Counted from the stretch's first letter, positions 5,094 through 33,010 are shown. The stretch: DNA of 35,201 bases from a virus (IMGVR_UViG_3300025644_000310:1-35201); one strand, 5' to 3'. Notes: generated by a model from the letters alone, not told the origin. Program-made: numbers and translations.

Positions 5094-5114
5094 AAAATAA
5101 TACTCAATACCCTA

Positions 5115-8776: not shown

Positions 8777-9081
8777 TACCTATCCTCTCCACTGTAAAAT
8801 TTATTCTTACCTGTTCCTAATAACTGCTCAGCTGTTATTTTGAAAGTTGTATCATTTGAAGATATTTTGTCAATTAATACTCTAATTCCTGAATTGATCT
8901 GATCTATTAAATCATTTCGCTCTCTATTTGTCGAGCTTATCTTAGATAAGAATTGCTTTAATTCCTGCTCAGTTCGTGATTCACTTGTATTACAGTAATT
9001 TCTTCGCTCATCTTCTAAATTCCATAACCGTATATTTGATATAGTTAACTTATCGATAAGATCTCCTATTGTATCAGCCAT
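8776..9081 (-). CDS. Small helical protein, DUF4254-like
   Basis: TIGDLIDKLTISNIRLWNLED ... NRERNDLIDQI pattern. Confidence 0.55.
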   Translation of the reverse strand: MADTIGDLIDKLTISNIRLWNLEDERRNYCNTSESRTEQELKQFLSKISSTNRERNDLIDQINSGIRVLIDKISSNDTTFKITAEQLLGTGKNKFYSGEDR

Positions 9082-9098
9082 TTTGATTCTCGTGTATT

Positions 9099-11332: not shown

Positions 11333-11988
11333 CCTTTCCTCACGTTTAATTCTTTACTAAAATTTTGATTATAAAATAGATTTTGCTGTTCTTGTTTATC
11401 TATTGTTTTAGGATGATATAACGATAATTCTTCGTGTGGTGGCAAATGTGCATATGTTTTACAACCTGTAATTAGTTCGTGTAATGGTCGAGTCCATCGT
11501 ACCTTTTCATCATTACGAAATACCCTGGCCTGGTAGTCTGGCCAATTTACCCAACCCTTTTCTGATACTTTCCATCCCCACTTCTGAATGTGTTCTACTT
11601 CCATACCATCGATTGTATTCACTCTTGGTACATATATTAAATCAACCCCATCATTCATTTCTATTATTTGTTTAAGTTGTTGTAATAATGTTTCGTGTGG
11701 CTGCTCATCCGCATCTATATGAAATATATAATCTCCCGTAGAGTTTTCTATAACCGAATTCTTTTGAGCCGAAAAATCACCATCAAGTTTTCTCTGATAA
11801 ACCTTAATGGTTTTCTCATGTGAGTATTGTTGTATCCAACTCGTTATAACTTCTTGTGTTTTCTCATCTGAATAATCATCACAAATAACAATCTCATCTT
11901 CTGGGTCTGTTTTGTGTATTAATATCTCTAATAACTTGTTTAGTTCATCTGCTTCATTATGAACAGTGATTCCATAACTAATTTTCAT
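11329..11988 (-). CDS. GT2 glycosyltransferase
   Basis: SYGITVHNE, ICDDYSDE, FSAQKN, FHIDADE (DxD), WPDYQ. Confidence 0.9.
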   Translation of the reverse strand: MKISYGITVHNEADELNKLLEILIHKTDPEDEIVICDDYSDEKTQEVITSWIQQYSHEKTIKVYQRKLDGDFSAQKNSVIENSTGDYIFHIDADEQPHETLLQQLKQIIEMNDGVDLIYVPRVNTIDGMEVEHIQKWGWKVSEKGWVNWPDYQARVFRNDEKVRWTRPLHELITGCKTYAHLPPHEELSLYHPKTIDKQEQQNLFYNQNFSKELNVRKG

Positions 11989-12500
11989 TAGTCGTTAAGT
12001 AACTCCAATTGTTCATCATCTTGTTTTTTCTTTTCTTTACCACTTAATGCTAATTCAAAATCATAATTTAATAATTCTACCAATTTCATTTTTTCCAACT
12101 TAAAAGTTTTGTATATGTTTGGAAGTGTCTTTTCAAGCTTTTTTATATTTTTCTTATAAAATACCTTTGGTGCAGAATATCCACTTGGAAACTTTAATGC
12201 CTGATATTCAAACTTCCCATCGGTTTCATTAAATATACCCTCACTTTCCTTTATGATTTTTTTCAATTCAACGGGTGGAACTTCTGATAAATCAAGACAG
12301 TGTGCTTTTTGATCTTTCATTCCACCAACAACTGGCCATAGATTTAATATCAAGACTAAGTATCTACCCTTGGACGCAGTTTTACTATCATATCTAATTT
12401 CATAAACTGACCCAGGTTTTAAATCACGAGGTTGAGATTTTTTTCTCCCCTTGCTATCACCTATTATTCTACCCCTATGTAATCTGTAATACTTAGCCAT
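11988..12500 (-). CDS. Hypothetical phage protein
   Basis: 170-aa ORF overlapping neighbours on both sides; no confident family. Confidence 0.6.
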   Translation of the reverse strand: MAKYYRLHRGRIIGDSKGRKKSQPRDLKPGSVYEIRYDSKTASKGRYLVLILNLWPVVGGMKDQKAHCLDLSEVPPVELKKIIKESEGIFNETDGKFEYQALKFPSGYSAPKVFYKKNIKKLEKTLPNIYKTFKLEKMKLVELLNYDFELALSGKEKKKQDDEQLELLND

Positions 12501-12984
12501 TACCTATATCCTTAGCAAAACCCATATCTTTACAAGCCTGGAGAAACTCATATTGTCCATATTCTATAGCACCTTCCATATCAAGTTTCTCAGTATAAAA
12601 TTCTCCATCTTTTCCTGGTACTGGATATGATTCTTTTTCGTTTTTAGGAACTTCAACTACTGTAGCATACTTCCATACCCATTTATTTATTGAACCTTCT
12701 GGGAATATCATACCCATTTGTCCCATATTTATAATGGATGGATACCAGTATATTTGTCTTTCTTCATCAAAGAATTCTAAGTCTTTAACAAGTTTTGAAG
12801 TGGTTTCTAATAGTTTTGCTCGTTCTTTGTTGTCCTCTGTGTAAAATGTATTGCTTAACATCCCACAATTAAAACATAAAAATGAACTATAATTTTCATA
12901 CATATCTTCAAAACAAGTATCTCTATCGTAACACACTGGGCAAGTATCTACAACTCGTTCACCGACATATTTTCCAATTTCCAT
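12493..12984 (-). CDS. Hypothetical protein with Zn-ribbon (CPVC...CFNC)
   Basis: Two CxxC motifs; strong RBS AGGGAGGT and TAATG overlap with the upstream gene. Confidence 0.7.
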   Translation of the reverse strand: MEIGKYVGERVVDTCPVCYDRDTCFEDMYENYSSFLCFNCGMLSNTFYTEDNKERAKLLETTSKLVKDLEFFDEERQIYWYPSIINMGQMGMIFPEGSINKWVWKYATVVEVPKNEKESYPVPGKDGEFYTEKLDMEGAIEYGQYEFLQACKDMGFAKDIGNG

Positions 12985-13721
12985 TAAACTACCTCCCTAT
13001 TTAAAAAATATTTAAAAAACATTGTACTTAATACAGCATGATCTCCCTTTAATTCACTGCCACAGTGGACATCCTTGCTTTCAAAAAATAACTTTATGTG
13101 CTTTCTAACGTTTTCGCTATATGTAATAAATTGTAAATTACTTATATCTCCAATATATTCTACCGGTATGTTATTTACAAACCCATAATTTATCGGAACT
13201 ATGTGATCTAAATGATATCCCAACCTACCTCGTTTTCCACTATTTGGTAATAAGTGTACCGACTGTGAATTTGTTATACGTAGAACATTCTTTTTGTATA
13301 TCTGCTTATCCGTTTTTGAAGCTAAAAAATCATCGTAATTATCATATCCATATTTCTTAATGTATCTATCTAATACACCAGGTTTGTACATATTATTCTC
13401 TTTACCACATTTTTCCCAGAATGGATTATTTTTACCAATCATCATCATTGAAATGCGTTTATATAACAATTTACCATCACCACTTTTATTAAATTTTAAC
13501 CTAGCACACGATTTACATTGCACTTTATGTCTAATTTGATTTATACAAGATTGCTTTGCTGTATGGAATACTTCACACTTGCAACTTGGGCAATCCCTAA
13601 CAAACTTACCATTTTTTATTTTAACATTGTATTTTATCTTACTTTTCCAAGAACATTCATTTGAACAATATTTTATATTTGTAGTATCCACACCACAAGC
13701 CTTACATTTAATAGTATTCAT
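12984..13721 (-). CDS. Free-standing HNH homing endonuclease with Zn-finger N-terminus
   Basis: CKAC/CSNEC/CPSC/CKSC motifs; YHLDHIVP...SNLQFITYSEN HNH core. Confidence 0.85.
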   Translation of the reverse strand: MNTIKCKACGVDTTNIKYCSNECSWKSKIKYNVKIKNGKFVRDCPSCKCEVFHTAKQSCINQIRHKVQCKSCARLKFNKSGDGKLLYKRISMMMIGKNNPFWEKCGKENNMYKPGVLDRYIKKYGYDNYDDFLASKTDKQIYKKNVLRITNSQSVHLLPNSGKRGRLGYHLDHIVPINYGFVNNIPVEYIGDISNLQFITYSENVRKHIKLFFESKDVHCGSELKGDHAVLSTMFFKYFLNREVV

Positions 13722-13873
13722 TTATTATTATCCAGTTTTCGTGTTTTATCTATCCATTCCAATATTAAATTTTCTATTAACAATGATTTATTTATAGAAT
13801 GGGTCTTTGCTATCTCATTAAATTGCTTCACCACTGATTTATCTACTGTATAATTTACTAGTTGTCGTTTCAT
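13718..13873 (-). CDS. Small ribbon-helix-helix-like protein (51 aa, not in ORF track)
   Basis: Manual translation MKRQLVNYTVDKSVVKQFNEIAKTHSINKSLLIENLILEWIDKTRKLDNNK; RBS GGAG; ATGA overlap with the HNH gene. Confidence 0.75.
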   Translation of the reverse strand: MKRQLVNYTVDKSVVKQFNEIAKTHSINKSLLIENLILEWIDKTRKLDNNK

Positions 13874-13911
13874 TTACTTTATCTCCAAGTTTTATTCATA
13901 CTTATACATAA

Positions 13912-13928
13912 ATAAATATAAAGAAATT
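13912..13928 (-). promoter_or_regulatory. Putative phage promoter motif AATTTCTT-n-ATATTTAT
   Basis: 16/17 identical to 18042-18058; core ATATTTAT also at 23433-23440 and 33907-33914, each just upstream of an endonuclease cassette. Confidence 0.55.
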
Positions 13929-13953
13929 CAATTTTCAATCAATTATTTCCATT

Positions 13954-15300
13954 TTAATTTACCTTTTTTAATGTTGGAAGTTTTATTTTCGGTAACTCTT
14001 TAACTTCACCGACTTTTTTTAACGTCGGGAGTTTAAGTTCCACCGGTTGTGGTGGAGCTTCAAAATTAGGTAAACATGCGTCGAGTATTTTCTCAAATTT
14101 TACAGTCATTGCATCAAGTGAGAACTTTGTTTTATTCATTATACCCTGTTTCTTAGCCTTTACCGTGTATTTATTATAATTATCAAAAACATCCTTTAAC
14201 ATTTTAGATGCGTAATTGTAATTTACAGTAAACCATTGAGTTCCTTTTATGTGCATTCCATTCTGTAATGATTCTTTCTTTACATCATTCATACTACCTG
14301 GTAATAATACAGACTTTTTACTATCCAGGAAATCTGTATGACCACTCCAGTTTGGTGCAATTACTGGTTTCTCACTTAAAGATGCCTCAAGTAATGGACG
14401 ACCAAATCCCTCACCGTGGGTGAATGAAACGTGAACCTTTACCTTTGGGTGATTGTATAAATCATTCATCTCATCATCTCTTAAATCACCGTGCAATACA
14501 TAAATGTTTGGTAAGTTACCCTCTACTGTCTGTCTTATTTGGTTCAACTTTGCGAGTATATCTTCTCTATCTAATATACAGGGTGTTGCTCCACTTGTTT
14601 TTAGAATTAGTGCAGGTTGGTTCTTCTTATTCTTAAATGTTTCCAAGAAGGTTTTAATCAGCATACCAAGATCTTTTCTGTCATTTCCTAAACCACCTTG
14701 TAACCAATGCCCCACGAATAGAAAACAAAAATCTTCTTTTATACTATCGAACTCGTCTACCAAATCCTTTGAAAATTCTTTTGTTGTTTTGTATATGTTT
14801 GTGTCTGCACCTTCAAATAAAACTTCTATTGGTGTTTGACATCTAACTTCACCAATTTTCTGTTTAGTTTGATTATCATGTTTATCAAATACGACCTTTT
14901 CAATACTTTCCTTAACAAATGTCGCTGGAACAATATTCAAGTTCATTCTATTTAATCCCTCTATCCATTCTGGGGGACACACGGTGGTTTCTAATCCTGC
15001 TGTGATACCAATATTAAATTTACCGATTGGTTGGAATTCATTTGGGACTACTATATGGATGTGAATATCTGGTTGTCTATCCATATTTGGATTATCTAAT
15101 AATCTCTCTATGATTGGAATATCATTTGGGTCATTTTCACTTAATGCATTTTGACTTGTGCTCCCCCACCTAACAGGCCATATTTTAATATCAAATTTAT
15201 TCATAGAAATCAATGACCTTGCAATATCTCTGGAGTGACTACCATATCCACTTCGAGTTCCCACCGGAGCAGTTATCAAAACTAAAGGTTTATAGCTCAT
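13954..15300 (-). CDS. GT4-like (GT-B) glycosyltransferase
   Basis: TRSGYG, HGEGFGRPLLEA, APNWSGHTDFL. Confidence 0.9.
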   Translation of the reverse strand: MSYKPLVLITAPVGTRSGYGSHSRDIARSLISMNKFDIKIWPVRWGSTSQNALSENDPNDIPIIERLLDNPNMDRQPDIHIHIVVPNEFQPIGKFNIGITAGLETTVCPPEWIEGLNRMNLNIVPATFVKESIEKVVFDKHDNQTKQKIGEVRCQTPIEVLFEGADTNIYKTTKEFSKDLVDEFDSIKEDFCFLFVGHWLQGGLGNDRKDLGMLIKTFLETFKNKKNQPALILKTSGATPCILDREDILAKLNQIRQTVEGNLPNIYVLHGDLRDDEMNDLYNHPKVKVHVSFTHGEGFGRPLLEASLSEKPVIAPNWSGHTDFLDSKKSVLLPGSMNDVKKESLQNGMHIKGTQWFTVNYNYASKMLKDVFDNYNKYTVKAKKQGIMNKTKFSLDAMTVKFEKILDACLPNFEAPPQPVELKLPTLKKVGEVKELPKIKLPTLKKVN

Positions 15301-15342
15301 ATATTTAAATCCTCTTCTGTTATTATTTTGAATTCATTTTTA

Positions 15343-16260
15343 TCAAACTTTATATAACGTAAATCGTTTTCTTGGTGTCCAGTTTTCAAGTGCAGTGTCC
15401 ATGTCATGTACCATACGTTTACACATATTTTTAGCTGACATTCCAATTTCTTCTAATTGTAAAAACTCCCTACCTAACTGTCCACATTCTTTTCTTTTTT
15501 CTGGTCCTTCATTATACCATTCTAATAATCTATCTGCTACATCATCCCATCTACATCTGTCGTCGAAAATATACGGTGTTGGAATTGAACCTTGTAAACT
15601 TCTATTTGATGGCCAGACTGGTTTTGCCCAATCACCGTAAGTAAGATCAGGATTGTCTTTCCATTTTCTGTCATCGTGTAGTGAATGAACCCAATCGTAA
15701 TCTTCAGTTGTTAGGAATTTACCCTTATATTTGAAGCCACTTGCATCCTGTAGACCACCTGTGGTATTTGTAGTGATTGGTGTTCCTGCCATTAGACTTT
15801 CGACTGTACCCAATCCGAAACCTTCATTACTTGCCATGTTTATAGTAACATCTGCAATATTATATAGAAAATTGAGTTGTTCGTCGTCTATCTTTTGGTG
15901 TGAGAATACAATATCGTAATCTGGACAAATTTCATTTACTACTACTGGTAAATCTGTTCCATTCTGGTCTACTGGTTGAGTGTGCATTAATAATACACAT
16001 TTGTCTGATTTCTCTTTGGGTAAGGTATCACAGAATGTTTTATATGCTAAAATCACGTCACTTGGAACTTTCCGTCTGATATTCCGATTATTCCAAAATA
16101 CTACGAAATCTTTATCTTTATCGTGGAACACTGATTTTCTATATCCTTGTAGTTTCTTCCATTTTTCCACATCTAACTCATTTATTGGGAAAAACTTATC
16201 TTCTGGAATACCATGTGGAACGTATGATAACATAACTTTACTTTTCTCGTTCATTTTCAC
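15343..16260 (-). CDS. GT4-like glycosyltransferase, C-terminal part
   Basis: YVPHGI, NNRNIRRK, SNEGFGLGTVES; own RBS AAGGAG before GTG/ATG. Confidence 0.85.
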   Translation of the reverse strand: MKMNEKSKVMLSYVPHGIPEDKFFPINELDVEKWKKLQGYRKSVFHDKDKDFVVFWNNRNIRRKVPSDVILAYKTFCDTLPKEKSDKCVLLMHTQPVDQNGTDLPVVVNEICPDYDIVFSHQKIDDEQLNFLYNIADVTINMASNEGFGLGTVESLMAGTPITTNTTGGLQDASGFKYKGKFLTTEDYDWVHSLHDDRKWKDNPDLTYGDWAKPVWPSNRSLQGSIPTPYIFDDRCRWDDVADRLLEWYNEGPEKRKECGQLGREFLQLEEIGMSAKNMCKRMVHDMDTALENWTPRKRFTLYKV

Positions 16261-16281
16261 TCCTTATTTTTCTAATAAAAC

Positions 16282-16845
16282 TTATTTTCCAATCCATTCA
16301 GTGTCGACACCACTTCTGTTTAAAACATCTTTATGCATTGCACAAGATTGTTTGGATATTCCCATTATCAAATCAGAACTCTCGTAGTATCTTGCATTGT
16401 ATAATGGTGATGGAAAATTGTCCCAAAGTGCATAATAAAATATGGGGATGAGTTGTCTAATTTCATGTTCCATTTGATATAACCAGCCCCAGAACCTCGG
16501 ATCAGTAAAATGTAAGATGGCATCTGGGTTTTCCAATTTCATTAGTTGTCGTAATAACTCTTGATTTCCATATCCACTAATAGGATATATTTTGAGGTAA
16601 GCATCTTCTATTCCAGTTTCTTCTCTAACTGAATCATTCATATCCACCACTTTACCGTCTTCTGGATGTTTTATTGCACCACCGGCCTGGACCCAATCGT
16701 ATTTATCAAGTGTACCCAGTACAAAATTTTTGGAAACTGTACCAACCCCACTACTCATTCTGAGTCAAAGATCATCTGATAAAAGTAAGATTTTTTTCTT
16801 CTTACTATTCAGATGATCTGTAGATACCTCCGTGATTTTATTCAT
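16282..16845 (-). CDS. GT4-like glycosyltransferase, N-terminal part, interrupted by in-frame TGA at 16765-16767
   Basis: From ATG 16845: MNKITEVSTDHLNSKKKKILLLSDDL*LRMSSGVGT...; same frame as track ORF 16282..16758 and as 15343..16260. Confidence 0.75.
16769..16819 (-). other. 51-nt hairpin inside coding sequence, ending at the codon before the TGA
   Basis: AGAUCAUCUGA (11 bp)/AU-UUUA internal loop/AGUAAGA (7 bp)/9-nt loop; arms are exact reverse complements. Confidence 0.8.
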
Positions 16846-17845
16846 ATTTATATTCCTGTAGTAATTTACCATTTTCATGTAATATCCATACATCAATTTT
16901 ATATAATTTATCTGTAACCGATTTACATTTTGATTCAACTGTATCTTCGTGTGTTTTATACGTCCACATTGATTTAACTTCTATAAACTTATTTTCAGAT
17001 TTTATAAAAATATCTGGAAAATACCTTCTATCTTTACCATTATTATACCAAAATTTTGGCATGCCTTTTTTATCTGTGAAAATATCACTTTCATCGTACA
17101 ACTTAAACAAAATATCTAACGCCTGTGGTTCATACCCTTGAACTCTTAATAACTTACCAGATGGTGTTTTATAATCTTTAAAATTTAATCTACTTTTAAT
17201 ATTTTTTTGATGAACTTCTGTATTTTGTTGAGCATTTCTAACTCCGTATTTTTTCAAACAAGTAGTCTCAGATTTTTCTCTGAATTCACTCGTTTTGAAG
17301 TAGTTAGATACACCATACTTTTTGAGCATTGTCTTTTTATAACTGTCACTTCTACTCTGAATCCGCTTCCTTGTCCATTTACTATTTGGATGGGATAACA
17401 TTCGTTCAACTACTTTATTGTCATTCATAGGATTATTTTTCATCATATATTCAGATTGACGTTTTATAGAAGAATTAGTATCTTTTGTAAGTCCACTATT
17501 CCAACTTTCACAGTGACCACCTAAAAATCTATTATATGTGTGTCTCGTATAACTATATTCTGTAAATTCACCACACCCACATTCACATTCAATTTTATGG
17601 TGTTTTATATTATAATTGTCAACCGATAAATTATGTAATTTTAAATGGTTAACTTTAATTGCTGAATTGGAACTTACAATATCACCACATTCTTTACAAT
17701 CAAACTTTCCAACAACATATTCACCATAATTTGATTTTGGAAATTTAAATTTGTATTCATACAATGATATACCGTGTTTAGATTTTAAATGTGAGCCATT
17801 GATTCTCATTTTCATCGTATCACCACATATTTCACAAACTACCAT
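16838..17845 (-). CDS. Free-standing PD-(D/E)XK homing endonuclease with C2H2 Zn fingers and KKYGV repeats
   Basis: CEIC...HLKSKH, CKEC...HLKLH, CECGC, two KKYGVxN repeats, YFPDIF...FIEVKS. Confidence 0.82.
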   Translation of the reverse strand: MVVCEICGDTMKMRINGSHLKSKHGISLYEYKFKFPKSNYGEYVVGKFDCKECGDIVSSNSAIKVNHLKLHNLSVDNYNIKHHKIECECGCGEFTEYSYTRHTYNRFLGGHCESWNSGLTKDTNSSIKRQSEYMMKNNPMNDNKVVERMLSHPNSKWTRKRIQSRSDSYKKTMLKKYGVSNYFKTSEFREKSETTCLKKYGVRNAQQNTEVHQKNIKSRLNFKDYKTPSGKLLRVQGYEPQALDILFKLYDESDIFTDKKGMPKFWYNNGKDRRYFPDIFIKSENKFIEVKSMWTYKTHEDTVESKCKSVTDKLYKIDVWILHENGKLLQEYKYE

Positions 17846-23474: not shown

Positions 23475-24554
23475 TTATTTTTGAAAAATTAGGCAAGGCT
23501 CCAGTTTCATACCTTTCCCCATAACTGATGAAAGAGTTAATTGTATTGTATCTACGTGAGTGAAGCCGACCCTTTCCGCAACTTTAATTGTACTTCCCAC
23601 TATTGTTTTATGTTTTGATGTATTTGCTATATTAATAATCATATACTTCTCATCCTTTAATCCGTAATAACCATTTTCAAATGATTGAAATAAAAATTCA
23701 TTTACCCAGCTGTCTAATGTAGGAAATTTTATATAACTTTGTGTTGGTTCATCACTATATTTCTCAGTGTCGAAATATGGTGGTGATGTAAAAACTAAAT
23801 CTAATATATCAGGATCTGTTCTGTATGTTTCTGACCCACACTTATATATATCAACTTTTTTCCCTAAATACGAAAAATCTTTTTTCATTTCTAATAGACC
23901 TTCGTATGCTCTGGTGGATGGTTCAGTACCAATATAATGTTTGGTATTTGATGATGCTAAGAACCCCAATAGTCTGCCGCCCCATCCAGAGCTAAAATCC
24001 CTAATGACTTCTCCACCGTATTTTTCATAAATCATCTTTGCAGCTGTTGGTCTAAAATTAGATACTGATTGTGTACCTGTATAAATTTTTATTGACTGAC
24101 GTAATCTGTTTTCGTGAAACTTATTATGGGTCCGTATTCCCTCACCACTCCAATGTTTTATTTGCCAGGTCCAACACTTTTTGATTGTTGCCTTGAACTT
24201 CTTATCATCATTGAAAGTTTCCATTGGGGATTTCATAGAGTTCCCACATTGAATTTCCCAAAAATATGGGAAGTAGGACCAGGCTAACCGTAGAGCATGC
24301 ATAGTCTGGATGATTTTCTTGTCCTCAAATATAGTGGTTGTGTCGAATTTACGCAGTTTTCTCATATGAGAATGCTTCTCATCTTCTCGTATTTTGTAGT
24401 GAGGGAAACCGTGTTTTCTATAATACTTGAAAATGACTTCTACGCCGTAATCAATATCTACTGTATCTATATTATTTGTAACTCTCTCAAACTCTAAATC
24501 ATCTTCATCAAACTCGAAAAAATTACCGAGTGTTGAGTAATTTGTTCGGCTCAC
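23475..24554 (-). CDS. DNA amino-methyltransferase (N4C/N6A type)
   Basis: Motif I DFSSGWGG precedes motif IV FTSPPY; SNFRP. Confidence 0.85.
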   Translation of the reverse strand: MSRTNYSTLGNFFEFDEDDLEFERVTNNIDTVDIDYGVEVIFKYYRKHGFPHYKIREDEKHSHMRKLRKFDTTTIFEDKKIIQTMHALRLAWSYFPYFWEIQCGNSMKSPMETFNDDKKFKATIKKCWTWQIKHWSGEGIRTHNKFHENRLRQSIKIYTGTQSVSNFRPTAAKMIYEKYGGEVIRDFSSGWGGRLLGFLASSNTKHYIGTEPSTRAYEGLLEMKKDFSYLGKKVDIYKCGSETYRTDPDILDLVFTSPPYFDTEKYSDEPTQSYIKFPTLDSWVNEFLFQSFENGYYGLKDEKYMIINIANTSKHKTIVGSTIKVAERVGFTHVDTIQLTLSSVMGKGMKLEPCLIFQK

Positions 24555-24994
24555 GGTAGGTTCAGTTTTTTCAGTTCTTTTGTATCCGCTCCGTATTTCT
24601 GGAGAATAGTTTTGAGATTTGCCTTGTTCTGTTCGGTTGCATAGAATACTTCTAAATATTCGTGTGCTTCTTTAAGACTTGATTCATAGTACTTTGCTAC
24701 TATTTCTAATAACCATTTTGGATGTTTCATACTCTTTTTACCTTTTGTGTATTTCAACCATTGCTTACCCTTTGGTAATATATTGGTATATAACTTGTAT
24801 AACTCTTGTGGTCTTAAATTATATTTTTGGAACTCATTTACTATATCTACCCATTCCATTTTCATAGATAGGAAGCGATGTACCATATAATTAGACCAAT
24901 TTTTCTTTTCTTTATCATTGAGCGTATCCCAATAACCTTTTGTTTGTTTTCCTGTTATATGATTTATGTGGTCAAACAGTGTTTTTGTTTTCAT
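24551..24994 (-). CDS. Clamp loader small subunit, T4 gp62-like
   Basis: WSNYMVHRFLSM...VNEFQKY...LYKLYTNILPKGKQWLKY pattern; context of a gp44-like gene. Confidence 0.75.
   Translation of the reverse strand: MKTKTLFDHINHITGKQTKGYWDTLNDKEKKNWSNYMVHRFLSMKMEWVDIVNEFQKYNLRPQELYKLYTNILPKGKQWLKYTKGKKSMKHPKWLLEIVAKYYESSLKEAHEYLEVFYATEQNKANLKTILQKYGADTKELKKLNLP
24851..24991. repeat. Direct repeat copy A (141 bp)
   Basis: Matches 30852-30992 at offset 6001; 24894-24991 (98 bp) identical; 8 mismatches in the other 43 bp. Confidence 0.95.
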
Positions 24995-25054: not shown

Positions 25055-25843
25055 TCAAATAAAGTTTTCATTGTTTCCTTTTAACAACCATTCTTCATCT
25101 TCTAACCTTTTCTTTCCTCTACTAATAAGTAGTTGTAATTCTTCACTGGATAGATTATTTTTTTCTAATGTACCACCAAGTTTTTTCATCAGAATCTTCA
25201 AAAATTCATCATTAAATTTTGTGGTATCAATAGTTGAATCAACTTCCCATAGACCACCAACCACATCACTAACATCTCCACCATCAGGTTCAAATGATGG
25301 TGTTTTAAGTACATTATTAATATCCAATTCTTTAACTTTAGTTGCTAATTTAGAATCAAACTGATAAGTTATAGTTCCAACAGTTACATGACAATTATTT
25401 ATAACCTCATAACTACAACCGAAGAATTTTTTTTGTTTATTCCTTATTTTAAAAAATATATCATTACGACCATTCCAGAAAGTTTCAATTCCAAATTTAA
25501 AACAACATTCTCGTACCGCTTGTAAGAATAATGGTTTTACATCACGAGAAAAATATAAAATAAAATTAAAACAATTAGGACCTTCTATCCAATATGCCAG
25601 TTTATCATCATCTATGTTATCTGGATCTTCGTAAACTCTTACTATCGGATATTCTATTTCTCCATTAAAAAATGATGAAATATCTAATTCACTATTTCCA
25701 AAAAAAGCTACAATATGTTTTTTTGATGAAAATTTTATAACTGTAGGACAATTTGTATCAATTAAATTTCCATACTCCCAAACTGAACTATATATGTCGG
25801 GAGTAAGACTTCCTAAATTTAAATATTTAATCTCATTGGTCAT
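25055..25843 (-). CDS. Lipoate-protein ligase A-like (BPL/LplA/LipB fold), divergent
   Basis: WNGRNDIF...KKFFGCSY...GTITY resembles RND...KKISG; Gly-rich RRxxGGG motif absent. Confidence 0.65.
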   Translation of the reverse strand: MTNEIKYLNLGSLTPDIYSSVWEYGNLIDTNCPTVIKFSSKKHIVAFFGNSELDISSFFNGEIEYPIVRVYEDPDNIDDDKLAYWIEGPNCFNFILYFSRDVKPLFLQAVRECCFKFGIETFWNGRNDIFFKIRNKQKKFFGCSYEVINNCHVTVGTITYQFDSKLATKVKELDINNVLKTPSFEPDGGDVSDVVGGLWEVDSTIDTTKFNDEFLKILMKKLGGTLEKNNLSSEELQLLISRGKKRLEDEEWLLKGNNENFI

Positions 25844-26744
25844 ACGCGGTCTGTTTTTCTTTATAAATCAAGAAGATACCACCTGAAAGTAATCCCAAAC
25901 CTAATAGTTGATATACTGATGGTGCCGTGTCTAAAAAGAAATAGGCGATTATTACTGCAAAGAATGAACCAAAACAAAGTTCACCAACTCCTGCGTTACT
26001 GGCTCCAATGTATTTAATTGCTGTCCAATAACATAAGTATGCAATATAACTGGCCACTATAGCAATATAGAGAATTGCCAATAGATTATGAGTGGTTAGT
26101 TGTGAAATTGTAGTTGCTGGTGATTGTAATAATGAAGTATAAACAAACACTTGTAGAAAATCGTAGAACACGATAGTAAGTGGTTTATATTTCTTCATTA
26201 TAGATTGTCCTACTAACAAATATCCAACCCATGCTGCAACTGCCACTACACATAACAATACACCAGATGTAGTCAATGCTTCAGTTGAAAATGTGGGTAG
26301 AAATTCAATTGCAAACAATGAACCAACCGTACCCAACCCTACTGCTATTTTTCTCTTAGTACTGAACTTCTCTCCATACAAATACACGGCAACAAGTGCC
26401 AGTACAAATGGATAAAAGTAAAAGATACCATAGATAACTGGAATATTAGGATCCAGATATTCCCAACCGAACCAATATGTAATCAAATGGACGGCAAGAA
26501 ATGCACCATTGGTCAAAAATCGTTTTATATCTTGTTTTTCCACAAGAAACAGATTTTCACCAGTTCTATATTTTTGAAATAAGATGGTTACACCAAACAA
26601 AATAGTTGCTATCAAGAACCTTGTAGATAACAAAGTAACTGGACCTGCACCCTCTGCAAAGATATAACTACCTGTAACCTCAAGACTTGACCATGCAAGA
26701 ATTGAACCGAATAATATCATTATTCCTTTTGTAAAATTATTCAT
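25833..26744 (-). CDS. EamA/DMT-family transporter
   Basis: About ten hydrophobic segments in two repeats; YLYGEKFSTKRK, AIKYIGAS, QLLGLGLLSGGIFL. Confidence 0.9.
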   Translation of the reverse strand: MNNFTKGIMILFGSILAWSSLEVTGSYIFAEGAGPVTLLSTRFLIATILFGVTILFQKYRTGENLFLVEKQDIKRFLTNGAFLAVHLITYWFGWEYLDPNIPVIYGIFYFYPFVLALVAVYLYGEKFSTKRKIAVGLGTVGSLFAIEFLPTFSTEALTTSGVLLCVVAVAAWVGYLLVGQSIMKKYKPLTIVFYDFLQVFVYTSLLQSPATTISQLTTHNLLAILYIAIVASYIAYLCYWTAIKYIGASNAGVGELCFGSFFAVIIAYFFLDTAPSVYQLLGLGLLSGGIFLIYKEKQTAYDQ

Positions 26745-27588
26745 TTTTACTATCTCCTAACTTTAGAATACCGAGGTCGGCATTTATTTTAAAAGTGATA
26801 TCACCTTCACCACTAAACTCTGCGGATAAAAAACTACCAGGATACTCTCCATCAAAAGTCCACATAACCCCATAAAGTGGTTTTGCATCTTTATTAGGAA
26901 AACTCTCATATCCCGCAAGTAAATTTAACCCATAAAGTCCAGGTTTAATAACTGCTCGAGCGAAATAATACTCATCACTCAAACTATACTCAGCGATATA
27001 TTCTATCTTATCATTTAATCCACTAACATCAATGGATTGTCTTTCTTGATTATCAACTGAAAGTGCTACGAATTGATTTGCTACTTCATATGATACACGA
27101 GCAGAAGCGTAATCACTCCAAATGTGATTTATATCATCACCGAAATAAGTTTCAAGATAACCTTTTTCACCAAGTGCACCATAGACACTAACTCCCCTAC
27201 CGAGAACCAACTCACCAACATCCCAACTCGTTTGATAAGTAAACATATCTCGTCTTGTCAAATCAAGATATGGTAAATTAGAACCATATGGTATTAACTG
27301 CTGTCCAAATCCAATATTAAATTTACCACCATTGGCTACACTATACGGTTTATAAAATAATTCTTCAACATATATTTTTTCATCGTTCCACGTAGGACCA
27401 AAGAAAAATGTTGCGAACCATTTTGAGTCATCACTTTTTACATACGAAAAAAGTATTGGTTTACTAAACGATACAGAGTCTCCAACTTCAACATATCCAA
27501 TAACCGAATTTTTGACCGTGATTGATGATTGGGCTGATAATACTGAAACCATTCCAAGTATCATCAATAACCTTACTATTTTATTCAT
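26737..27588 (-). CDS. Secreted/outer-membrane beta-rich protein (porin O/P-like)
   Basis: Signal peptide ending VLSA-Q; GFGQQLIPYG resembles GQFKxPFG; alternating aromatic strands. Confidence 0.55.
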   Translation of the reverse strand: MNKIVRLLMILGMVSVLSAQSSITVKNSVIGYVEVGDSVSFSKPILFSYVKSDDSKWFATFFFGPTWNDEKIYVEELFYKPYSVANGGKFNIGFGQQLIPYGSNLPYLDLTRRDMFTYQTSWDVGELVLGRGVSVYGALGEKGYLETYFGDDINHIWSDYASARVSYEVANQFVALSVDNQERQSIDVSGLNDKIEYIAEYSLSDEYYFARAVIKPGLYGLNLLAGYESFPNKDAKPLYGVMWTFDGEYPGSFLSAEFSGEGDITFKINADLGILKLGDSKNE

Positions 27589-27619
27589 TATAACTTCTCC
27601 TTATTATTATATATATATA

Positions 27620-28771
27620 TCATATTTCATATCCAAATTCCAACATTTCTTTGTAAAACTTTTTTTCAATTCTCTTTCGTTGTTTTTTAGTGAGAATGTC
27701 TTTCCAATTTTGGTGTTTAAAATATTCTTTACTCATTGGGTAACTGGCCTCTTTATTCAGTTTTACCATCTTACTAAATGATGTACTTTCAATACACTTT
27801 TTAATTTTATCTTCATCATATGTACCACATCCCACATCATCAGTTAAAAATTTAATAATTTTAGAAAAATATTTAAAACTATCTTGTAATAAATCTTCAT
27901 ATCTAACAACTATTCCAGGATAACCATCCTTTTCTCCGTGTTCTTTCCAAGACATATAATTGTTATACCAATTTAATCTAAATTCTGGAAAATCATCTTT
28001 TTCAGATATATTCATACCATCAGTTGTTATATGGTCTATAGCATTATCAATACTAACTTCCATATATCTGGAATAAGAAATAACCACATCTCTTGGATCC
28101 CTAATTATATTAATATAACCAGCAGCCTTTGTGGCATCTATAAATAAATTACCATTAAGAGTGCCATTCTTATTATGAGTTGTAAGAAACTCAAAATTTA
28201 AATCAGGATCACCATGAGTCCACTCCATTTGTTGCTGGGCTCGTTGCCAATATTCTACAATTCTTTCTTTTTTTTCATCAATCTTTGATTTATATTTTCC
28301 GAAAAAGGTATCACACAAAAAATGTGGTGTTTTATCTATCAACATTTTTAAATAAAACTCTCCATCTTCTGTAAAATAATAAGCTCCTAAAAAACTTCTC
28401 ACCCAAGCAGTCCCACTCCGAGGATAAGTTGTAATCCATATAATTTTATTATTATTTATTGGCCTTTTTTTAAAATCAGGCTGAAGATTTACTACTGTTT
28501 TTTGTTTCCACAATCCATGTTTTTTCAATGATTCAATAATTAAAAATGAATTTTTAGCATCGAATCCAATAAAAAAATCATCTCCTATTTCTACTATTGG
28601 AACAGCAAATGAATGAGTTTTTTTAAACATTCTTCGTCTTTCTTCTCTATTCGTAACTACATCAATTTCTTCATATTCCAAAGATTGATTAGAAAGTAAT
28701 TGTTTAACCATATTGCAACCGGGACAATTTTTTATTTTTGATGATGTAAATAACTTTATTTTTGTAACCAT
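27620..28771 (-). CDS. Glutaredoxin-sulfotransferase fusion
   Basis: Start re-assigned to ATG 28771 (AAGGA RBS); CPGC and AVPIVEIGDDFFIGFD Grx domain; TYPRSGT and IIRDPRDVVISY PAPS-binding motifs. Confidence 0.88.
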   Translation of the reverse strand: MVTKIKLFTSSKIKNCPGCNMVKQLLSNQSLEYEEIDVVTNREERRRMFKKTHSFAVPIVEIGDDFFIGFDAKNSFLIIESLKKHGLWKQKTVVNLQPDFKKRPINNNKIIWITTYPRSGTAWVRSFLGAYYFTEDGEFYLKMLIDKTPHFLCDTFFGKYKSKIDEKKERIVEYWQRAQQQMEWTHGDPDLNFEFLTTHNKNGTLNGNLFIDATKAAGYINIIRDPRDVVISYSRYMEVSIDNAIDHITTDGMNISEKDDFPEFRLNWYNNYMSWKEHGEKDGYPGIVVRYEDLLQDSFKYFSKIIKFLTDDVGCGTYDEDKIKKCIESTSFSKMVKLNKEASYPMSKEYFKHQNWKDILTKKQRKRIEKKFYKEMLEFGYEI

Positions 28772-28799
28772 TTTTTCCTTATAAATTAGTTTACGGAAA

Positions 28800-30416
28800 T
28801 TACATGGAATTTGTACATATTCCCTTTGATATCCACCATGAAGTGTTGTTACAAACAATACTACCTTTTAGCGTGGTATAAGAAGGAGCGTGGTTCAAAT
28901 TGTTGCTCTGTGCTGAGTAATAATAACAGGCTGTAGGGGCGCTAGGATAGTGCACAGTCCATGAATATCCATACGTCAGCCAATTGAGCCAGGGCGGAGC
29001 CGCACATGCCACATTATGCATTATCACTCCGTTAGCATAATAATAATCCTGGGGTTCAACATTAAGTTCGTGAATAGGAAACACCTGTGTTGAAGATGAA
29101 ACAACCGAAAAACTTGTTATCTTTAATGGTTGTCCGTCCTCACCTGCCAAATAATCTCCAACCGACAACTCTATTGTTGGTTTAAATTTCCATTTATTTT
29201 CACTTCCGCTAGTCAAAAGGTTTGTAAATGTACCAAATTTCTTATCACCATTTATTACGGTATATGAATCTGTATATCTATCAGCCCACTTTTCGGTGAC
29301 CTCAACATTTGATTGGGATGGTATTGACAAGCTTGAAGTTTCCCAAAGTTTCCACAAATAATTACCACACTTGTTAGCGTACCCATCCGATTCATCGGGT
29401 AACCCACTAATATTACGGACTTTTAAGAACGACCCTGTAACTACATTTTCTATGTTTGTATAACTGTCATCAGACATTAATACTTGACTTCCTGTCATAG
29501 CACCCTTTCGTGTAATAGTAGTAGTTGCATAAGAACCCGAATCACCTGATAAAATATAATGAGGTAATTGAGTTTGAAAAACATTCACATCCGCTGTAAT
29601 TGAACCACGTGGTTGTAAAAAAATATTTTCTTGTGGAGTCAGCATCACAATGCCCCTCACCTCGGAATAATAGGCTCCATTATAATTTAAATCGGGTTGG
29701 ATAAACTCCTCACAATAAGATTGAGAAAGTAAATAATCTTTATTATCATCCGTTATATCATAAAACTGAAAAGAATTCATAAGTAAAGTTTGATAATCTA
29801 CTGTGGGGTCTTTAATAAGTACATCTGGAACACCAACACCATTAGAAAATCCATCAGGTAAATCTGCCATTTTTCTTGGCATCAAAGATTCAATTCCAGA
29901 TGAAGATGCGAAATTCCTAAATTCTCTTTTATCCGATGCTAAATAATCAATAGGACTTGCAGAATCAAATCCAAATCGTAACACAAAAGTAGTATTAGGA
30001 ACATCAAAATCTGGTACCGGAGTAGGATAGGAGGGCTGAACATAAATACTTGATGTAAACCCATCTATGTCCAAACTGGCTGTTATATCACCCACTAAGT
30101 TCAAAGATGGTATAACAGTTCCTTCTTCATTTCGTGTAACCAAAACTATAGTGTCATAATTATTTGCTTTCCACCAAGTAACTGCACTATCTAAAAAATT
30201 AGTTTCAGGTGGAGTTTGAATATTCGTGTTAAGTTCTAATAACTTTAATGATCCACTTGAAGGGACCCAATCATATCCGGCAATTACTCCATAATTATCA
30301 CCCTTTCCCGACCAATATTCAGGATTACTTCCTGTTAAAAAGGGAGCGGCAGCTTGCAAAGACTGAGTTACAATAGAACTACTATAATTATTAAAACTAA
30401 AATAATTTAATTTCAT
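28800..30416 (-). CDS. Circularly permuted ATP-grasp-like domain + Hint domain + 70-aa Cys/aromatic-rich C-terminal peptide
   Basis: N-terminal GYDW...LLELNTN, later IKDP, EEFIQP, EVRG; Hint 29013-29504 (GAMTGSQVLMSD...ELNVEPQDYYYANGVIMHN). Confidence 0.7.
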   Translation of the reverse strand: MKLNYFSFNNYSSSIVTQSLQAAAPFLTGSNPEYWSGKGDNYGVIAGYDWVPSSGSLKLLELNTNIQTPPETNFLDSAVTWWKANNYDTIVLVTRNEEGTVIPSLNLVGDITASLDIDGFTSSIYVQPSYPTPVPDFDVPNTTFVLRFGFDSASPIDYLASDKREFRNFASSSGIESLMPRKMADLPDGFSNGVGVPDVLIKDPTVDYQTLLMNSFQFYDITDDNKDYLLSQSYCEEFIQPDLNYNGAYYSEVRGIVMLTPQENIFLQPRGSITADVNVFQTQLPHYILSGDSGSYATTTITRKGAMTGSQVLMSDDSYTNIENVVTGSFLKVRNISGLPDESDGYANKCGNYLWKLWETSSLSIPSQSNVEVTEKWADRYTDSYTVINGDKKFGTFTNLLTSGSENKWKFKPTIELSVGDYLAGEDGQPLKITSFSVVSSSTQVFPIHELNVEPQDYYYANGVIMHNVACAAPPWLNWLTYGYSWTVHYPSAPTACYYYSAQSNNLNHAPSYTTLKGSIVCNNTSWWISKGICTNSM

Positions 30417-30841
30417 TTAATTTCTTCCCAATTACATTTTTTAAATACATTTATGCTTTTTATATTCCACCCATCTACCATACTATAAATATCAATTTTC
30501 TTCTTATTTACCAAATTTGTAATTGAATATATTAATTGCTCTCCATATCCCGTATTTCTATAATCTTTATGTACATATAAATTACAAAGTTCATTTTCTA
30601 TGATATTAAACCAAACCCACCCCACGATTTTATTATTTATTTCTAAAATATTAAAATACCATCCATCTTTTAATCGTTGTTTTGCATCTTCCATCGACCA
30701 CATATCTTCCCAATTCAATTCTACTTGAAATTCATCTAGAGCCCGTTTTAATTTTTCTTCATCTAATTCAAAAACTTGATTTATTTCTGGTATAATGTCA
30801 ACTTCTTTATAATTTATTAAATCCGGTTTAAATTTAATCAT
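30413..30841 (-). CDS. GNAT acetyltransferase
   Basis: IVGWVW, LYVHKDYRNTGYGEQL acetyl-CoA motif, NIKSINVFKK. Confidence 0.88.
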   Translation of the reverse strand: MIKFKPDLINYKEVDIIPEINQVFELDEEKLKRALDEFQVELNWEDMWSMEDAKQRLKDGWYFNILEINNKIVGWVWFNIIENELCNLYVHKDYRNTGYGEQLIYSITNLVNKKKIDIYSMVDGWNIKSINVFKKCNWEEIK

Positions 30842-30998
30842 TTATTGATGTCCAATTCATATTCATAGATAGAAAACGGTGAACCATATAATTGGACCAA
30901 TTTTTCTTTTCTTTATCATTGAGCGTATCCCAATAACCTTTTGTTTGTTTTCCTGTTATATGATTTATGTGGTCAAACAGTGTTTTTGTTTTGGTCAT
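30834..30998 (-). pseudogene. Truncated 5' copy of the gp62-like gene (54 aa)
   Basis: MTKTKTLFDHINHITGKQTKGYWDTLNDKEKKNWSNYMVHRFLSMNMNWTSIND*; directly follows 30999..31274. Confidence 0.85.
30852..30992. repeat. Direct repeat copy B (141 bp)
   Basis: Matches 24851-24991; 30895-30992 identical to 24894-24991. Confidence 0.95.
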
Positions 30999-31274
30999 CT
31001 ACAAATCTAATCTGGAAAGTGAATCATCTTTAGGCTCTTCTTCTATTCCACTACCTTCTAAAAATACCTTTGGGACTTTTCCGCATTGGCCACATGAGTA
31101 TACTTGGATCGGAACGAGTGCTTCTTGTCCGGTGGGTGATAGGATTGCAGATATTCTCTTTATTATGTGTGAAGTAATAAATAGATAATTTCCACAATCA
31201 TCACATTTTATTGTGTCTGCCTTTGTTAAATCAACCTTTTGTTGAATCTGTTGTGGTGGTTTTCGTTTAGCCAT
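30999..31274 (-). CDS. Small Zn-ribbon protein
   Basis: CDDC ... CGQC. Confidence 0.75.
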   Translation of the reverse strand: MAKRKPPQQIQQKVDLTKADTIKCDDCGNYLFITSHIIKRISAILSPTGQEALVPIQVYSCGQCGKVPKVFLEGSGIEEEPKDDSLSRLDL

Positions 31275-32055
31275 TTTGTAACTCCTCTAATGTAACCATT
31301 TCAACTCCGTGTTTCTGAACTACACGAGTTGTACATTTCTGTGCAAATTGTATTGCACTTTCTATGTTATTTGTTTCTAAATATTCCTTAACAAGTCCAG
31401 CTATAAATGTATCACCTGCCCCACTAACATCTTTAACTGGAACTTTTTCTACTGAAAATACTTTATCTTTATATCTACATCCATTACCTCCAAGTGTAAC
31501 TATAAGTTTATCATCAAATCCTTCTTCAGATAGTAGTTCGTGATTTTTCTGATATTCTAACTCGTTTATTTTTATGAAATCTGCACACTGTATCCACTTA
31601 CCAAGTTTTTTCTTTGTATCTACAAATACATTATTATTATTTTCACAAATGAATTGTATATCTTCTTCTTCTAAAAATCCCTTACAGTAATCTGAAATAA
31701 TGATTGCGTCAAGCTTGGTTTTGTGTCCAAATATTGGAGTAAATGAATTATCTACTATGCCACTTAGTATTTTCTTATCTATTCTATCACAATAATCATG
31801 TTCATCAACTCGTAATACCATTTGATTTGACCGACTATCCACGTAACGCTTCTTCACAATACTAGTTTCATTTGTAAGTGAATATACAGTCATTTCTAAT
31901 GATTCAACATTATTCACCACATTTTTAGACATTCCTTCATTTTTAGTTTCATGTGTTGGAACAAATATTGGAACTGGGGCCTCTGGACTTATTCTATGTA
32001 TATCACCGTATATAAACACATCTAAGCATTTATCTCCAATGACTAAAACATTCAT
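31267..32055 (-). CDS. rfaE: RfaE/HldE-like PfkB kinase (heptose-7-phosphate kinase-like)
   Basis: VIGDKCLD, RISPEAPVP, ISDYCKG, KINELE, DVSGAGDTF. Confidence 0.88.
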   Translation of the reverse strand: MNVLVIGDKCLDVFIYGDIHRISPEAPVPIFVPTHETKNEGMSKNVVNNVESLEMTVYSLTNETSIVKKRYVDSRSNQMVLRVDEHDYCDRIDKKILSGIVDNSFTPIFGHKTKLDAIIISDYCKGFLEEEDIQFICENNNNVFVDTKKKLGKWIQCADFIKINELEYQKNHELLSEEGFDDKLIVTLGGNGCRYKDKVFSVEKVPVKDVSGAGDTFIAGLVKEYLETNNIESAIQFAQKCTTRVVQKHGVEMVTLEELQNG

Positions 32056-32281: not shown

Positions 32282-33010
32282 TTATTTTATTATATTTAAT
32301 ATATTAATCATTGTTGCCATAAAATTTATTTCTCTATCCACGATGTTTTTTTCTCTAAACTGACCTTCAGCCAGTTCTAATATACATTCCGCGACATGAC
32401 CACTCGCCCATGAATCCAGTTCATCAAATAGTAATCTGAACATATCAGCAAATTCTGTAACTTGGGTGTCTGCTAATAATTGTCGTATATTCTTAAATGC
32501 GCTCTTCTTATCTTGTGACTTTAGTATTTCTAATAATTTTAATTTGTAATCATTTTCAACCATACTACGTTTATCAACAGTCAATTTACCATTTATAGAT
32601 TGCTGTTGGACTGAATTGATTATTCGTCTAATGTCTGGATACCCACTATTAACGTTCAATACTATGTCCTCTACGTTGTATTCTATTTCTTCCTTATCCA
32701 ATATACCCTTTATATGTACTGCAATTTCTTTTTTGGATGGTGGAATTATCTGAAATGTTTGACATCTACTTTGGATTGGATCAATTATTCGTTCTACATA
32801 ATTACAGGTTAGAATAAACCGAGAATGTTTACTGAACGTTTCCATTAGATTTCGTAGTGCTGCTTGACCTTGTGGGGTGACGAAATCACAATTATGTGTA
32901 AGTGTTTCTGTTTTACCTATTACGAAATTATGATTACCGTCAACTGACAAGTCATACACGTGCTGGGTGTCTTTTAATTTTTTTATAGATTTAATCTTTA
33001 TCTTGTTCAC
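32282..33010 (-). CDS. Split intein C-part (40 aa) + C-terminal 202 aa of clamp loader (gp44/RFC small subunit)
   Basis: VYDLSVDGNHNFV...LTHN|CDFVTPQGQAALRN, FILTCNY, PIQSRC, PDIRRIIN; GTG start. Confidence 0.95.
   Translation of the reverse strand: MNKIKIKSIKKLKDTQHVYDLSVDGNHNFVIGKTETLTHNCDFVTPQGQAALRNLMETFSKHSRFILTCNYVERIIDPIQSRCQTFQIIPPSKKEIAVHIKGILDKEEIEYNVEDIVLNVNSGYPDIRRIINSVQQQSINGKLTVDKRSMVENDYKLKLLEILKSQDKKSAFKNIRQLLADTQVTEFADMFRLLFDELDSWASGHVAECILELAEGQFREKNIVDREINFMATMINILNIIK
32891..33010 (-). other. Int-C of a naturally split intein
   Basis: Blocks F/G, terminal His-Asn, +1 Cys at 32888-32890; six Lys in the first 13 residues. Confidence 0.93.

Follow-up and report, generated by a model that had tools for sequence, protein, structure and literature searches.

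Six genes that lie one after another in a phage genome, and that look able to make, modify and export a peptide, raise a simple question: do they form one pathway, or is the block a composite? The block in question occupies positions 25,055 to 30,841 of IMGVR_UViG_3300025644_000310:1-35201, a stretch of viral DNA of 35,201 nucleotides that we analysed as a whole (hereafter the window). At its centre is a fusion gene that joins an ATP-grasp-like domain, a Hint domain and a short Cys-rich tail. A preliminary description had suggested that the six genes are one pathway of the kind that yields ribosomally synthesised and post-translationally modified peptides (RiPPs). Its gene list stands, as open reading frame (ORF) calls, Pfam and structure comparison agree on six co-directional ORFs, all on the minus strand and with the domains claimed; a recount of tail residues 469-538 likewise gives 4 Cys, 7 Tyr and 5 Trp. 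The LplA-like gene, which had been called divergent, is divergent in sequence and not in orientation; all six genes share one strand. The answer that we favour, and to which we give an even chance, is that the region is not one pathway but a composite, in which an older backbone of genes has received a clade-specific, self-releasing insert. In the direction of transcription the genes and their domains are:

30413..30841, minus strand: GNAT acetyltransferase of 142 amino acids (Pfam Acetyltransf_1, E 1.9e-12); its stop and the start of the fusion gene share 4 nucleotides, and its best NCBIfam match, under the curated cutoff, is RimI-like
28800-30416, minus strand: fusion gene of 538 amino acids, comprising ATP-grasp-like domain, Hint domain and Cys-rich tail (AlphaFold model)
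29517..30416, minus strand: ATP-grasp-like domain, fusion residues 1-300 (fold match)
29013..29504, minus strand: Hint domain of the bacterial intein-like (BIL) kind, fusion residues 305-468 (fold and profile)
28800..29012, minus strand: tail, fusion residues 469-538 and the stop codon, a 70-residue Cys/aromatic cassette
28472..28771, minus strand: glutaredoxin domain with a CPGC active site (Pfam Glutaredoxin, E 7.9e-11, 42.4 bits against a cutoff of 22.9)
27620..28471, minus strand: sulfotransferase domain (Pfam Sulfotransfer_1, E 7.7e-15, 55.4 bits against a cutoff of 22)
26737..27588, minus strand: secreted beta-rich protein of 283 amino acids with a signal peptide; overlaps the EamA gene by 8 nucleotides
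25833..26744, minus strand: EamA inner-membrane carrier (Pfam EamA, E 1.8e-25, two repeats); shares 11 nucleotides with the LplA-like gene
25055..25843, minus strand: LplA/biotin-ligase-superfamily protein of 262 amino acids (TIGR00545, E 2.8e-6; Pfam, E 0.007)

Gene content of related loci

The closest relatives of the block come from 18 metagenomic and three IMG/VR loci, in which the fusion protein is 62-98% identical. Wherever the contig reaches far enough, these loci carry the fusion, the glutaredoxin, the beta-rich protein, EamA, the LplA-like gene and gp62, a clamp-loader gene, in that order. This shared order says little, because the phages are close kin. Some members of the block come and go even here. 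The GNAT gene lies upstream of the fusion in nine of 16 loci and is absent from seven, and in locus L003 its position is occupied by a Sulfotransfer_2 gene. Ten of 13 informative loci have the sulfotransferase (it is missing in L003, L017 and L021); in L003 a 2-oxoglutarate (2OG)-Fe(II) oxygenase stands where it would be.

Further from the window, nine contigs whose gp44, the other clamp-loader gene, is 61% identical carry a zinc-ribbon gene, a GNAT (30%), an ATP-grasp-Hint-Hint protein (29%), three 2OG oxygenases and a B12 radical SAM protein, followed by gp62 where it is reached; tail, glutaredoxin, beta-rich protein, EamA and LplA-like gene are all missing. At L034:8001-14183 and L039:5284-10908, in a sister lineage, a tail-less ATP-grasp-Hint-Hint gene precedes 2OG-Fe(II) oxygenases and a B12-binding radical SAM protein of 700 amino acids, which stand just before gp62. 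Locus L045 has a Sulfotransfer_4 gene, an ATP-grasp protein with a degenerate Hint and an Asp/Asn-hydroxylase-like gene.

A scan with the beta-rich protein family found 26 viral loci, and about 20 of these share a recognisable layout. They begin with a PfkB kinase and the zinc-ribbon gene, often with a 190-residue paralogue of the N-terminal half of the ATP-grasp domain, then a GNAT (40-49%) and a set of variable genes (2OG oxygenase, S-adenosylmethionine decarboxylase, and genes with no assignment). They continue with the beta-rich protein, EamA, SET or DUF1989 inserts, the LplA-like gene (27-37%) and gp62. Between gp44 and gp62 none of them has a tailed fusion or a glutaredoxin, so the co-occurrence of all six families, put forward earlier as a check on the pathway, breaks down in these distant contigs. 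In L051 a tail-less ATP-grasp-Hint gene is found at the opposite end, with the LplA-like gene before it and gp62 after it. Scans with the single proteins P0043 and P0044 found no viral contig. At L064:5468-6993 the GNAT is fused to a QueC-like PP-loop domain (388 amino acids) and is followed by an S-adenosylmethionine decarboxylase gene, which lies directly upstream of the pair of beta-rich protein and EamA and hints at polyamine metabolism in this slot.

Since the GNAT gene and the trio of beta-rich protein, EamA and LplA-like gene are seen without the fusion in about 20 contigs, we take them to be the old backbone. Judged by gene content, the tailed fusion and the glutaredoxin are a later, clade-specific insert, and the sulfotransferase is an optional add-on.

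The fusion protein, its tail and the adjoining glutaredoxin

What, then, has been inserted? The 538-residue fusion has no Pfam or NCBIfam match and no useful PHROG match, and its architecture is read from an AlphaFold model built on a 49-sequence alignment (predicted local distance difference test (pLDDT) 83.5, predicted template modelling score (pTM) 0.76). The Hint domain superposes on inteins from the first to the last intein residue. It matches Tetrahymena BIL2 (6y75) with Z 18.8 and a root-mean-square deviation of 2.2 over 141 residues, the BIL domain of Clostridium thermocellum (2lwy) with Z 17.9, and more than 100 intein or Hedgehog chains with Z of at least 8; the family profile also matches BIL2 by sequence (E 7e-12). 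BIL domains, which are non-splicing, self-processing Hints found in variable proteins, are its best matches in both structure and sequence. The window Hint differs from them in lacking Cys or Ser at position 1, with only the C-terminal His-Asn remaining, and for this reason the N-terminal thioester chemistry that underlies BUBL conjugation is impossible.

The residues around the two ends of the domain are telling. Where the N-terminal nucleophile would stand, at position 1, the fusion has Gly305 (others have Val or Thr); at +1 the homologues have Val, Ala, Thr, Pro or Ile, and the first Cys comes at +3. A Gly at position 1 and a non-nucleophile at +1 therefore exclude both splicing and N-terminal cleavage. 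At the other end H467 and N468 are invariant in 17 homologues and align with the last intein residue. From 1.8 billion representative proteins a search recovered 124 relatives. Among those with the ATP-grasp-Hint architecture, all four types that run on past the Hint keep His-Asn, and all six that stop there have lost it; the four comprise the window family and three types with additional tandem Hints, and the lineages are not independent. That the pair is kept only with a C-terminal extension argues for catalysis, and fits a Hint retained for C-terminal cleavage. Probably, then, the one cut that the Hint makes is at its C-terminal end, which would release the tail; linker residues 472-475, just past the cut site, are predicted to be disordered in the model. 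The window protein does not match the Pfam model for PT-HINT, PF07591, which matches only the second Hint of distant relatives. The autoproteolytic release that the preliminary description proposed is thus plausible and on firmer ground, given its layout of enzyme, Hint and peptide and the residues kept for C-terminal cleavage, while the cut itself is something that we infer.

The tail is far more variable than the rest of the protein. In 14 full-length genes its mean pairwise amino-acid identity is 0.38-0.52, against 0.70-0.93 elsewhere, and the median nonsynonymous differences per site are 0.39 in the tail and 0.08 in the body, with synonymous differences of 0.71 and 0.22. Comparison of the DNA gives the tail 58-65% identity, or no alignment at all, against 87-95% for the Hint and glutaredoxin flanks, which bears out the earlier expectation of a hypervariable peptide beside conserved enzymes. 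The borders of the cassette are sharp, with His-Asn at one end and the stop codon at the other. The raised synonymous divergence implies that the tail alleles are old, and have been kept or shuffled by recombination. The ratio of nonsynonymous to synonymous change (dN/dS) is about 1.5 in the two closest pairs only, and on few sites. Diversifying selection alone is not demonstrated as the cause of the variation.

Against this variation stands an invariant framework of C471, C497, C522, C534, W476, Y482, P491, P511, G518, W528, K531 and G532, from which it follows that the fold is constrained and the loops are free. The tail is modelled as a beta-rich fold (pLDDT 64-85), with residues 487-535 forming a small beta structure. 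Neither Pfam at E 10 nor the ESM Atlas gave a usable match to it. In two metagenomic homologues of the fusion, P0033 and P0036, the tail is followed by some 215 further residues that include a Laminin_G_3 domain (a concanavalin-like lectin). The unrelated Hint protein P0136 has a different Cys/aromatic tail after its His-Asn. Three further ideas about the tail were considered and set aside. A diversity-generating retroelement would need a template repeat and a reverse transcriptase, both absent from the contig (within the 35 kb the tail DNA occurs once, and no ORF has a YxDD motif). Zinc binding by the four Cys is unlikely, as they are spaced by 26, 25 and 12 residues and form no CxxC knuckle. 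Two apparent stand-alone tails of 76 and 79 amino acids (P0061 and P0088) are best read as truncated gene calls, both of which begin at the internal Met of ...MHN.

Directly downstream of the tail-bearing fusion comes the glutaredoxin, in 16 of the 16 loci that reach that far; it is absent from all tail-less loci. In the window it is joined to the sulfotransferase in a protein of 383 amino acids, which starts at the ATG at 28771, not at the TTG at 28858, 28 nucleotides past the fusion stop. Its best NCBIfam match is to a YruB-family glutaredoxin-like protein. The linkage gives substance to the idea that the glutaredoxin handles the disulfides of the peptide, a role that we nevertheless infer. 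The sulfotransferase has the motifs YPRSGTAW and RDPRDVVIS intact; these are the 5'-phosphosulfate-binding (5'-PSB) and 3'-phosphate-binding (3'-PB) motifs for 3'-phosphoadenosine-5'-phosphosulfate (PAPS), and their definitions are well established. In L008, L018 and L019 glutaredoxin and sulfotransferase lie in different reading frames, so that either the fusion of the two is not universal or these copies are frameshifted.

The N-terminal part of the fusion appears to be an enzyme. Residues 1-300, modelled alone (pLDDT 85.7), match ten chains, including 3kaj, 5oeu, 7uka, 2io7 and 9cjn, with Z 8.7-11.1 over 211-244 residues; Z then falls to 6.8, and to 4.7 or less for all other (classic) ATP-grasp enzymes. 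Pfam at E 10 gave no match to the domain. G43, D49, E61, N63, T64, R147, D157, K202 and R254 are kept down to 25% identity, and these seem to be residues of the kind that an active ATP-grasp needs; E61-x-N63-T64, R147, K202 and R254, conserved throughout the family, may be equivalent to the metal and ATP ligands of glutathione synthetase. The matched clade consists of glutathione synthetase, glutathionylspermidine/trypanothione synthetase, YgiC and Cp1B, which has been identified as the ligase of the E-64 pathway (PMC12568646). With these enzymes and YjfC the window domain shares the fold, and its ExN(T) motif, a Lys and an Arg may stand at the places of the metal and phosphate ligands; it differs in being shorter (about 290 residues against 370-600), in having no Pfam profile match and in being fused to a Hint. 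The domain is probably an active amide-forming ligase, conceivably one whose substrate is the tail itself. A signal peptide is missing from the fusion, as residues 12-26 form a confident helix within the modelled fold.

Relatives of this domain also occur in other settings. Stand-alone proteins of about 190-207 amino acids, which correspond to its first half (through ExNT and Asp157, without the Lys202 region), are common beside the zinc-ribbon gene in this phage group (L003:8448-9035, L047:2265-2888, L064:4893-5471 and others). Larger proteins of 889-910 amino acids, at L054:1473-4205, L066:1487-4219 and L069:1569-4238, combine an EINTNT-type N-domain with about 650 residues that have no Pfam match.

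Put together, these features suggest the following course of events. The fusion would be made in the cytoplasm, where a Hint with no N-terminal nucleophile would be unable to splice. His467-Asn468 would most likely drive asparagine cyclisation, so that the Asn468|Val469 bond is cut and the 70-residue module freed. The freed module, with its four invariant cysteines, probably paired in two disulfides, would present a hypervariable surface, and the glutaredoxin would probably manage its thiols. As it has neither a signal peptide nor a peptide exporter, the module would escape when the cell is lysed, and would then encounter, on host or competitor cells, a partner that varies.

The trio and the gp44-gp62 slot

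The trio downstream of the insert has a different character. Its genes overlap end to end and stay together across deep divergence. The beta-rich protein has a single family lead, a language-model similarity of 0.97 to a Porin_O_P cluster with 186 shared features, and is possibly an outer-membrane porin; Pfam (up to E 10) and sequence and family-profile searches of the PDB gave no match. Its family comprises 62 homologue clusters and adjoins EamA in every locus with enough sequence. EamA proteins form a family of 10-helix drug/metabolite carriers, which move small solutes and not 70-residue peptides. For the EamA of the window the best NCBIfam match is TIGR00950, a carboxylate/amino acid/amine transporter (E 4.9e-10, under the curated cutoff). 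The same family name is borne by the Escherichia coli biotin transporter YigM, a 10-helix carrier from the family for carboxylate/amino acid/amine transport (PMC4049904).

The third member is found only in this phage group, in 22 clusters. Its family profile matches LplA (1x2g) and biotin ligase (2ej9) in the PDB at E 0.007, aligned over GRND...KKFxGS, with G125, N127, D128, K138 and K139 invariant and K138/K139 aligned with the lysine region of LplA GDRKVSGS. The assignment, to which three sources contribute, is weak but consistent. What recalls LplA/BirA salvage with YigM is the GRND...K motif and the translational coupling to a carrier of YigM's broad family; what sets the window protein apart from LplA is the missing C-terminal accessory domain (262 against about 338 amino acids) and scores far under the curated cutoffs. 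We propose that the trio would carry a small carboxylate-type solute across the envelope and attach it to a lysine of a protein, in the manner of cofactor salvage, and its make-up suggests a role in the uptake and attachment of a cofactor-like carboxylate. In some loci further genes are inserted between EamA and the LplA-like gene, namely SET-domain genes (L006:11539-12024, L017:11795-12286 and L066:8764-9243) and DUF1989 genes (L006:10938-11546 and L064:8698-9333).

The window as a whole is a 35.2-kb metagenomic contig of about 31% G+C with every gene on the minus strand. Its PHROG matches, which include both clamp-loader subunits, exonucleases and homing endonucleases, indicate a T4-like phage, and its source is an uncultured marine member of this group. 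No GenBank phage has a clamp loader more than 45% identical to that of the window, the nearest being an uncultured 484-kb phage, and when the island, the fusion, the LplA-like protein and the beta-rich protein were compared, as DNA and as protein, with 50,697 GenBank phage records, there was no match. In T4, gp44 and gp62 adjoin each other. Here the slot between them holds, in the order of transcription, a 69-residue ORF, a PfkB kinase, a zinc-ribbon protein, a partial gp62 copy of 54 amino acids and then the six-gene block. The features around the block are:

32282-33010, minus strand: gp44 clamp-loader gene, upstream end of the slot
31267-32055, minus strand: PfkB kinase, resembling the heptose-7-phosphate kinase domain RfaE-I of HldE/RfaE (NCBIfam, E 7e-38)
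30999-31274, minus strand: zinc-ribbon protein of 91 amino acids, 62-91% identical across lineages, mostly about 70%
30834..30998, minus strand: ORF of 54 amino acids that duplicates the gp62 5' end (46 of 50 residues equal gp62 residues 2-51, 92%), upstream edge of the block
24551..24994, minus strand: gp62 clamp-loader subunit (PHROG 225, E 2.3e-17), downstream boundary of the island

The block from GNAT to LplA-like gene is therefore bracketed by a repeat of the gp62 5' end, which is probably a recombination scar; the duplicate is also found in L001. The zinc-ribbon protein is far better conserved across lineages than its neighbours GNAT and ATP-grasp-Hint (about 30%). Positions 1-17000 of the window hold nucleotide-sugar epimerases and glycosyltransferases which, with PfkB, make up a large set of glycan-modification genes. 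A scan for promoters and terminators found fewer promoter-like sites than in shuffled sequence, and the operon boundaries are not clear from it.

Competing explanations and biological meaning

How do the alternatives to a composite fare? If the six genes were one RiPP-like pathway, the Hint would release the peptide, the glutaredoxin would handle its disulfides, the sulfotransferase would sulfate Tyr or Ser, GNAT or the LplA-like protein would acylate it, and EamA would export it with the beta-rich protein. The genes are co-directional and tightly packed, with some ends overlapping, their order is kept in all close relatives, the core is hypervariable and the enzymes conserved, and sister loci swap tailoring-type enzymes beside the fusion (Sulfotransfer_2, 2OG oxygenase, B12 radical SAM and Asp/Asn hydroxylase-like). 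It was the conserved gene order among close relatives that had been taken for a pathway. However, the genes are not co-inherited: the backbone does without the fusion in some 20 contigs, GNAT and the sulfotransferase are dispensable, and tail-less relatives adjoin enzymes of the same kinds, so these neighbours are not specific to the tail. A leader peptide, a recognition element, a leader peptidase and an ATP-binding cassette (ABC) or other peptide exporter are all absent, and EamA-family carriers generally move small metabolites, so that export of the peptide by EamA is implausible; its sulfation and acetylation are pure inference. We consider the single pathway very unlikely. Another possibility is that the tail is never released, and is a small disulfide-stapled binding domain that directs the enzyme, or else a protein associated with the virion, to host surface structures that vary, with the Hint as no more than a scaffold. 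The lectin-like Laminin_G_3 domain after the tail in two homologues would suit such a role, as would a weak match of the Hint part to a PHROG annotated as a virion structural protein. Receptor-binding proteins typically have hypervariable C-terminal tips, and in a viral structure library many phage Hint proteins are joined to FN3, PASTA or collagen modules, which are characteristic of structural proteins. That said, His-Asn is kept only where there is a C-terminal extension, the gene lies in the replication module and not the structural one, the N-domain is an enzyme fold with conserved active-site-like residues, and the linker past the cut site is predicted to be disordered. A retained tail is to our minds a minor possibility.

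The genes could also be unrelated auxiliaries in a recombination hotspot, with an enzyme domain that acts on small molecules (e.g. thiol/polyamine conjugates, like glutathionylspermidine synthetase) and a tail with no separate role. The gp44-gp62 cargo of related phages is diverse enough (GT25, SET, DUF1989, S-adenosylmethionine decarboxylase, 2OG oxygenases and sulfotransferases), the nearest folds belong to amide ligases of small molecules, in L064 an S-adenosylmethionine decarboxylase and a GNAT, two enzymes familiar from polyamine metabolism, adjoin each other, and the duplicated gp62 5' end points to a recombination scar. We still think it improbable, as the four-Cys/aromatic framework is invariant across homologues of 62-98% identity, a mark of purifying selection for the fold, and as the linkage of glutaredoxin to tail is strict and His-Asn goes with the extension. 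A further reading, tentative and about as doubtful as that of a retained tail, goes beyond the composite: the fusion would be the first of a phage-encoded class of peptide precursors that release, and possibly modify, themselves. In it an ATP-grasp ligase would act on its own hypervariable, disulfide-rich C-terminal peptide or work together with it, a built-in Hint would free the peptide with no need of a protease, interchangeable neighbours (sulfotransferase, 2OG oxygenase, GNAT) would tailor it, and the product would serve as a polymorphic extracellular peptide in conflict between phage and host or between phages in the ocean.

Several observations weigh against the composite with its self-releasing insert. 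The cleavage is a prediction from motif and fold, and in the profile alignment the block-F histidine of canonical inteins is an Asp in the window Hint. Synonymous divergence in the tail is saturated, so that positive selection and ancient recombined alleles are indistinguishable. Because it is confined to one clade, the link between glutaredoxin and tail amounts to effectively one evolutionary event. Sulfotransfer_1, _2 and _4 adjoin ATP-grasp or ATP-grasp-Hint genes in separate loci, and three such families hint at a wider functional link; as sulfotransferases also adjoin tail-less versions, the tail is not their sole target. For the trio, the porin assignment comes from language-model features alone, and the LplA-like scores lie under the curated cutoffs (16.8 against 27 bits in Pfam, 26.5 against 280 bits for TIGR00545).

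How new is this arrangement? The individual folds are known, and so is the release of polymorphic C-terminal modules by a Hint, from bacterial toxin systems. In the PT-HINT polymorphic toxins, too, a Hint directly precedes a swapped or hypervariable C-terminal module with a sharp border between conserved and variable parts, and the module is expected to come free when the Asn of the terminal His-Asn cyclises. The window fusion differs in its N-terminus, which is a cytoplasmic ATP-grasp-like enzyme and not a secretion or filament domain, and in its cargo, which is one framework-conserved 70-residue module with four Cys in place of a variety of toxin folds; next downstream, where an immunity gene would vary along with the toxin, there is a conserved glutaredoxin (85-95% DNA identity). 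A second likeness, an analogy and not homology, and the closest known architecture to the pathway of the preliminary description, is to the borosins, in whose precursors (OphMA) a methyltransferase is fused to its own core peptide and a separate protease is needed. Both have an enzyme and a short C-terminal peptide in one chain; unlike the borosins, the window fusion has an ATP-grasp-like enzyme and a built-in Hint that would do the cutting, and its self-modification is a conjecture. The combination of a glutathione-synthetase-like ATP-grasp, a Hint for C-terminal cleavage only, a hypervariable four-Cys peptide with a conserved framework and a constant glutaredoxin partner, in a lytic marine phage, was not found in Pfam, NCBIfam, the functional PHROGs or GenBank phages, and our literature search turned up no paper on such a combination.

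If the Hint cuts as predicted, a lytic phage would have a protease-free route to a small, disulfide-stabilised and rapidly diversifying peptide. Polymorphic-toxin logic would then be joined with an enzyme-precursor fusion, in a virus and with an unannotated enzyme family. The 210-bp cassette is among the sharpest local peaks of diversity that could be expected in genomes otherwise 90-95% identical, and as such it would mark a molecular interface under conflict. The trio of beta-rich protein, EamA and ligase suggests, for its part, that marine phages may equip their hosts for the uptake and attachment of cofactor-like molecules.

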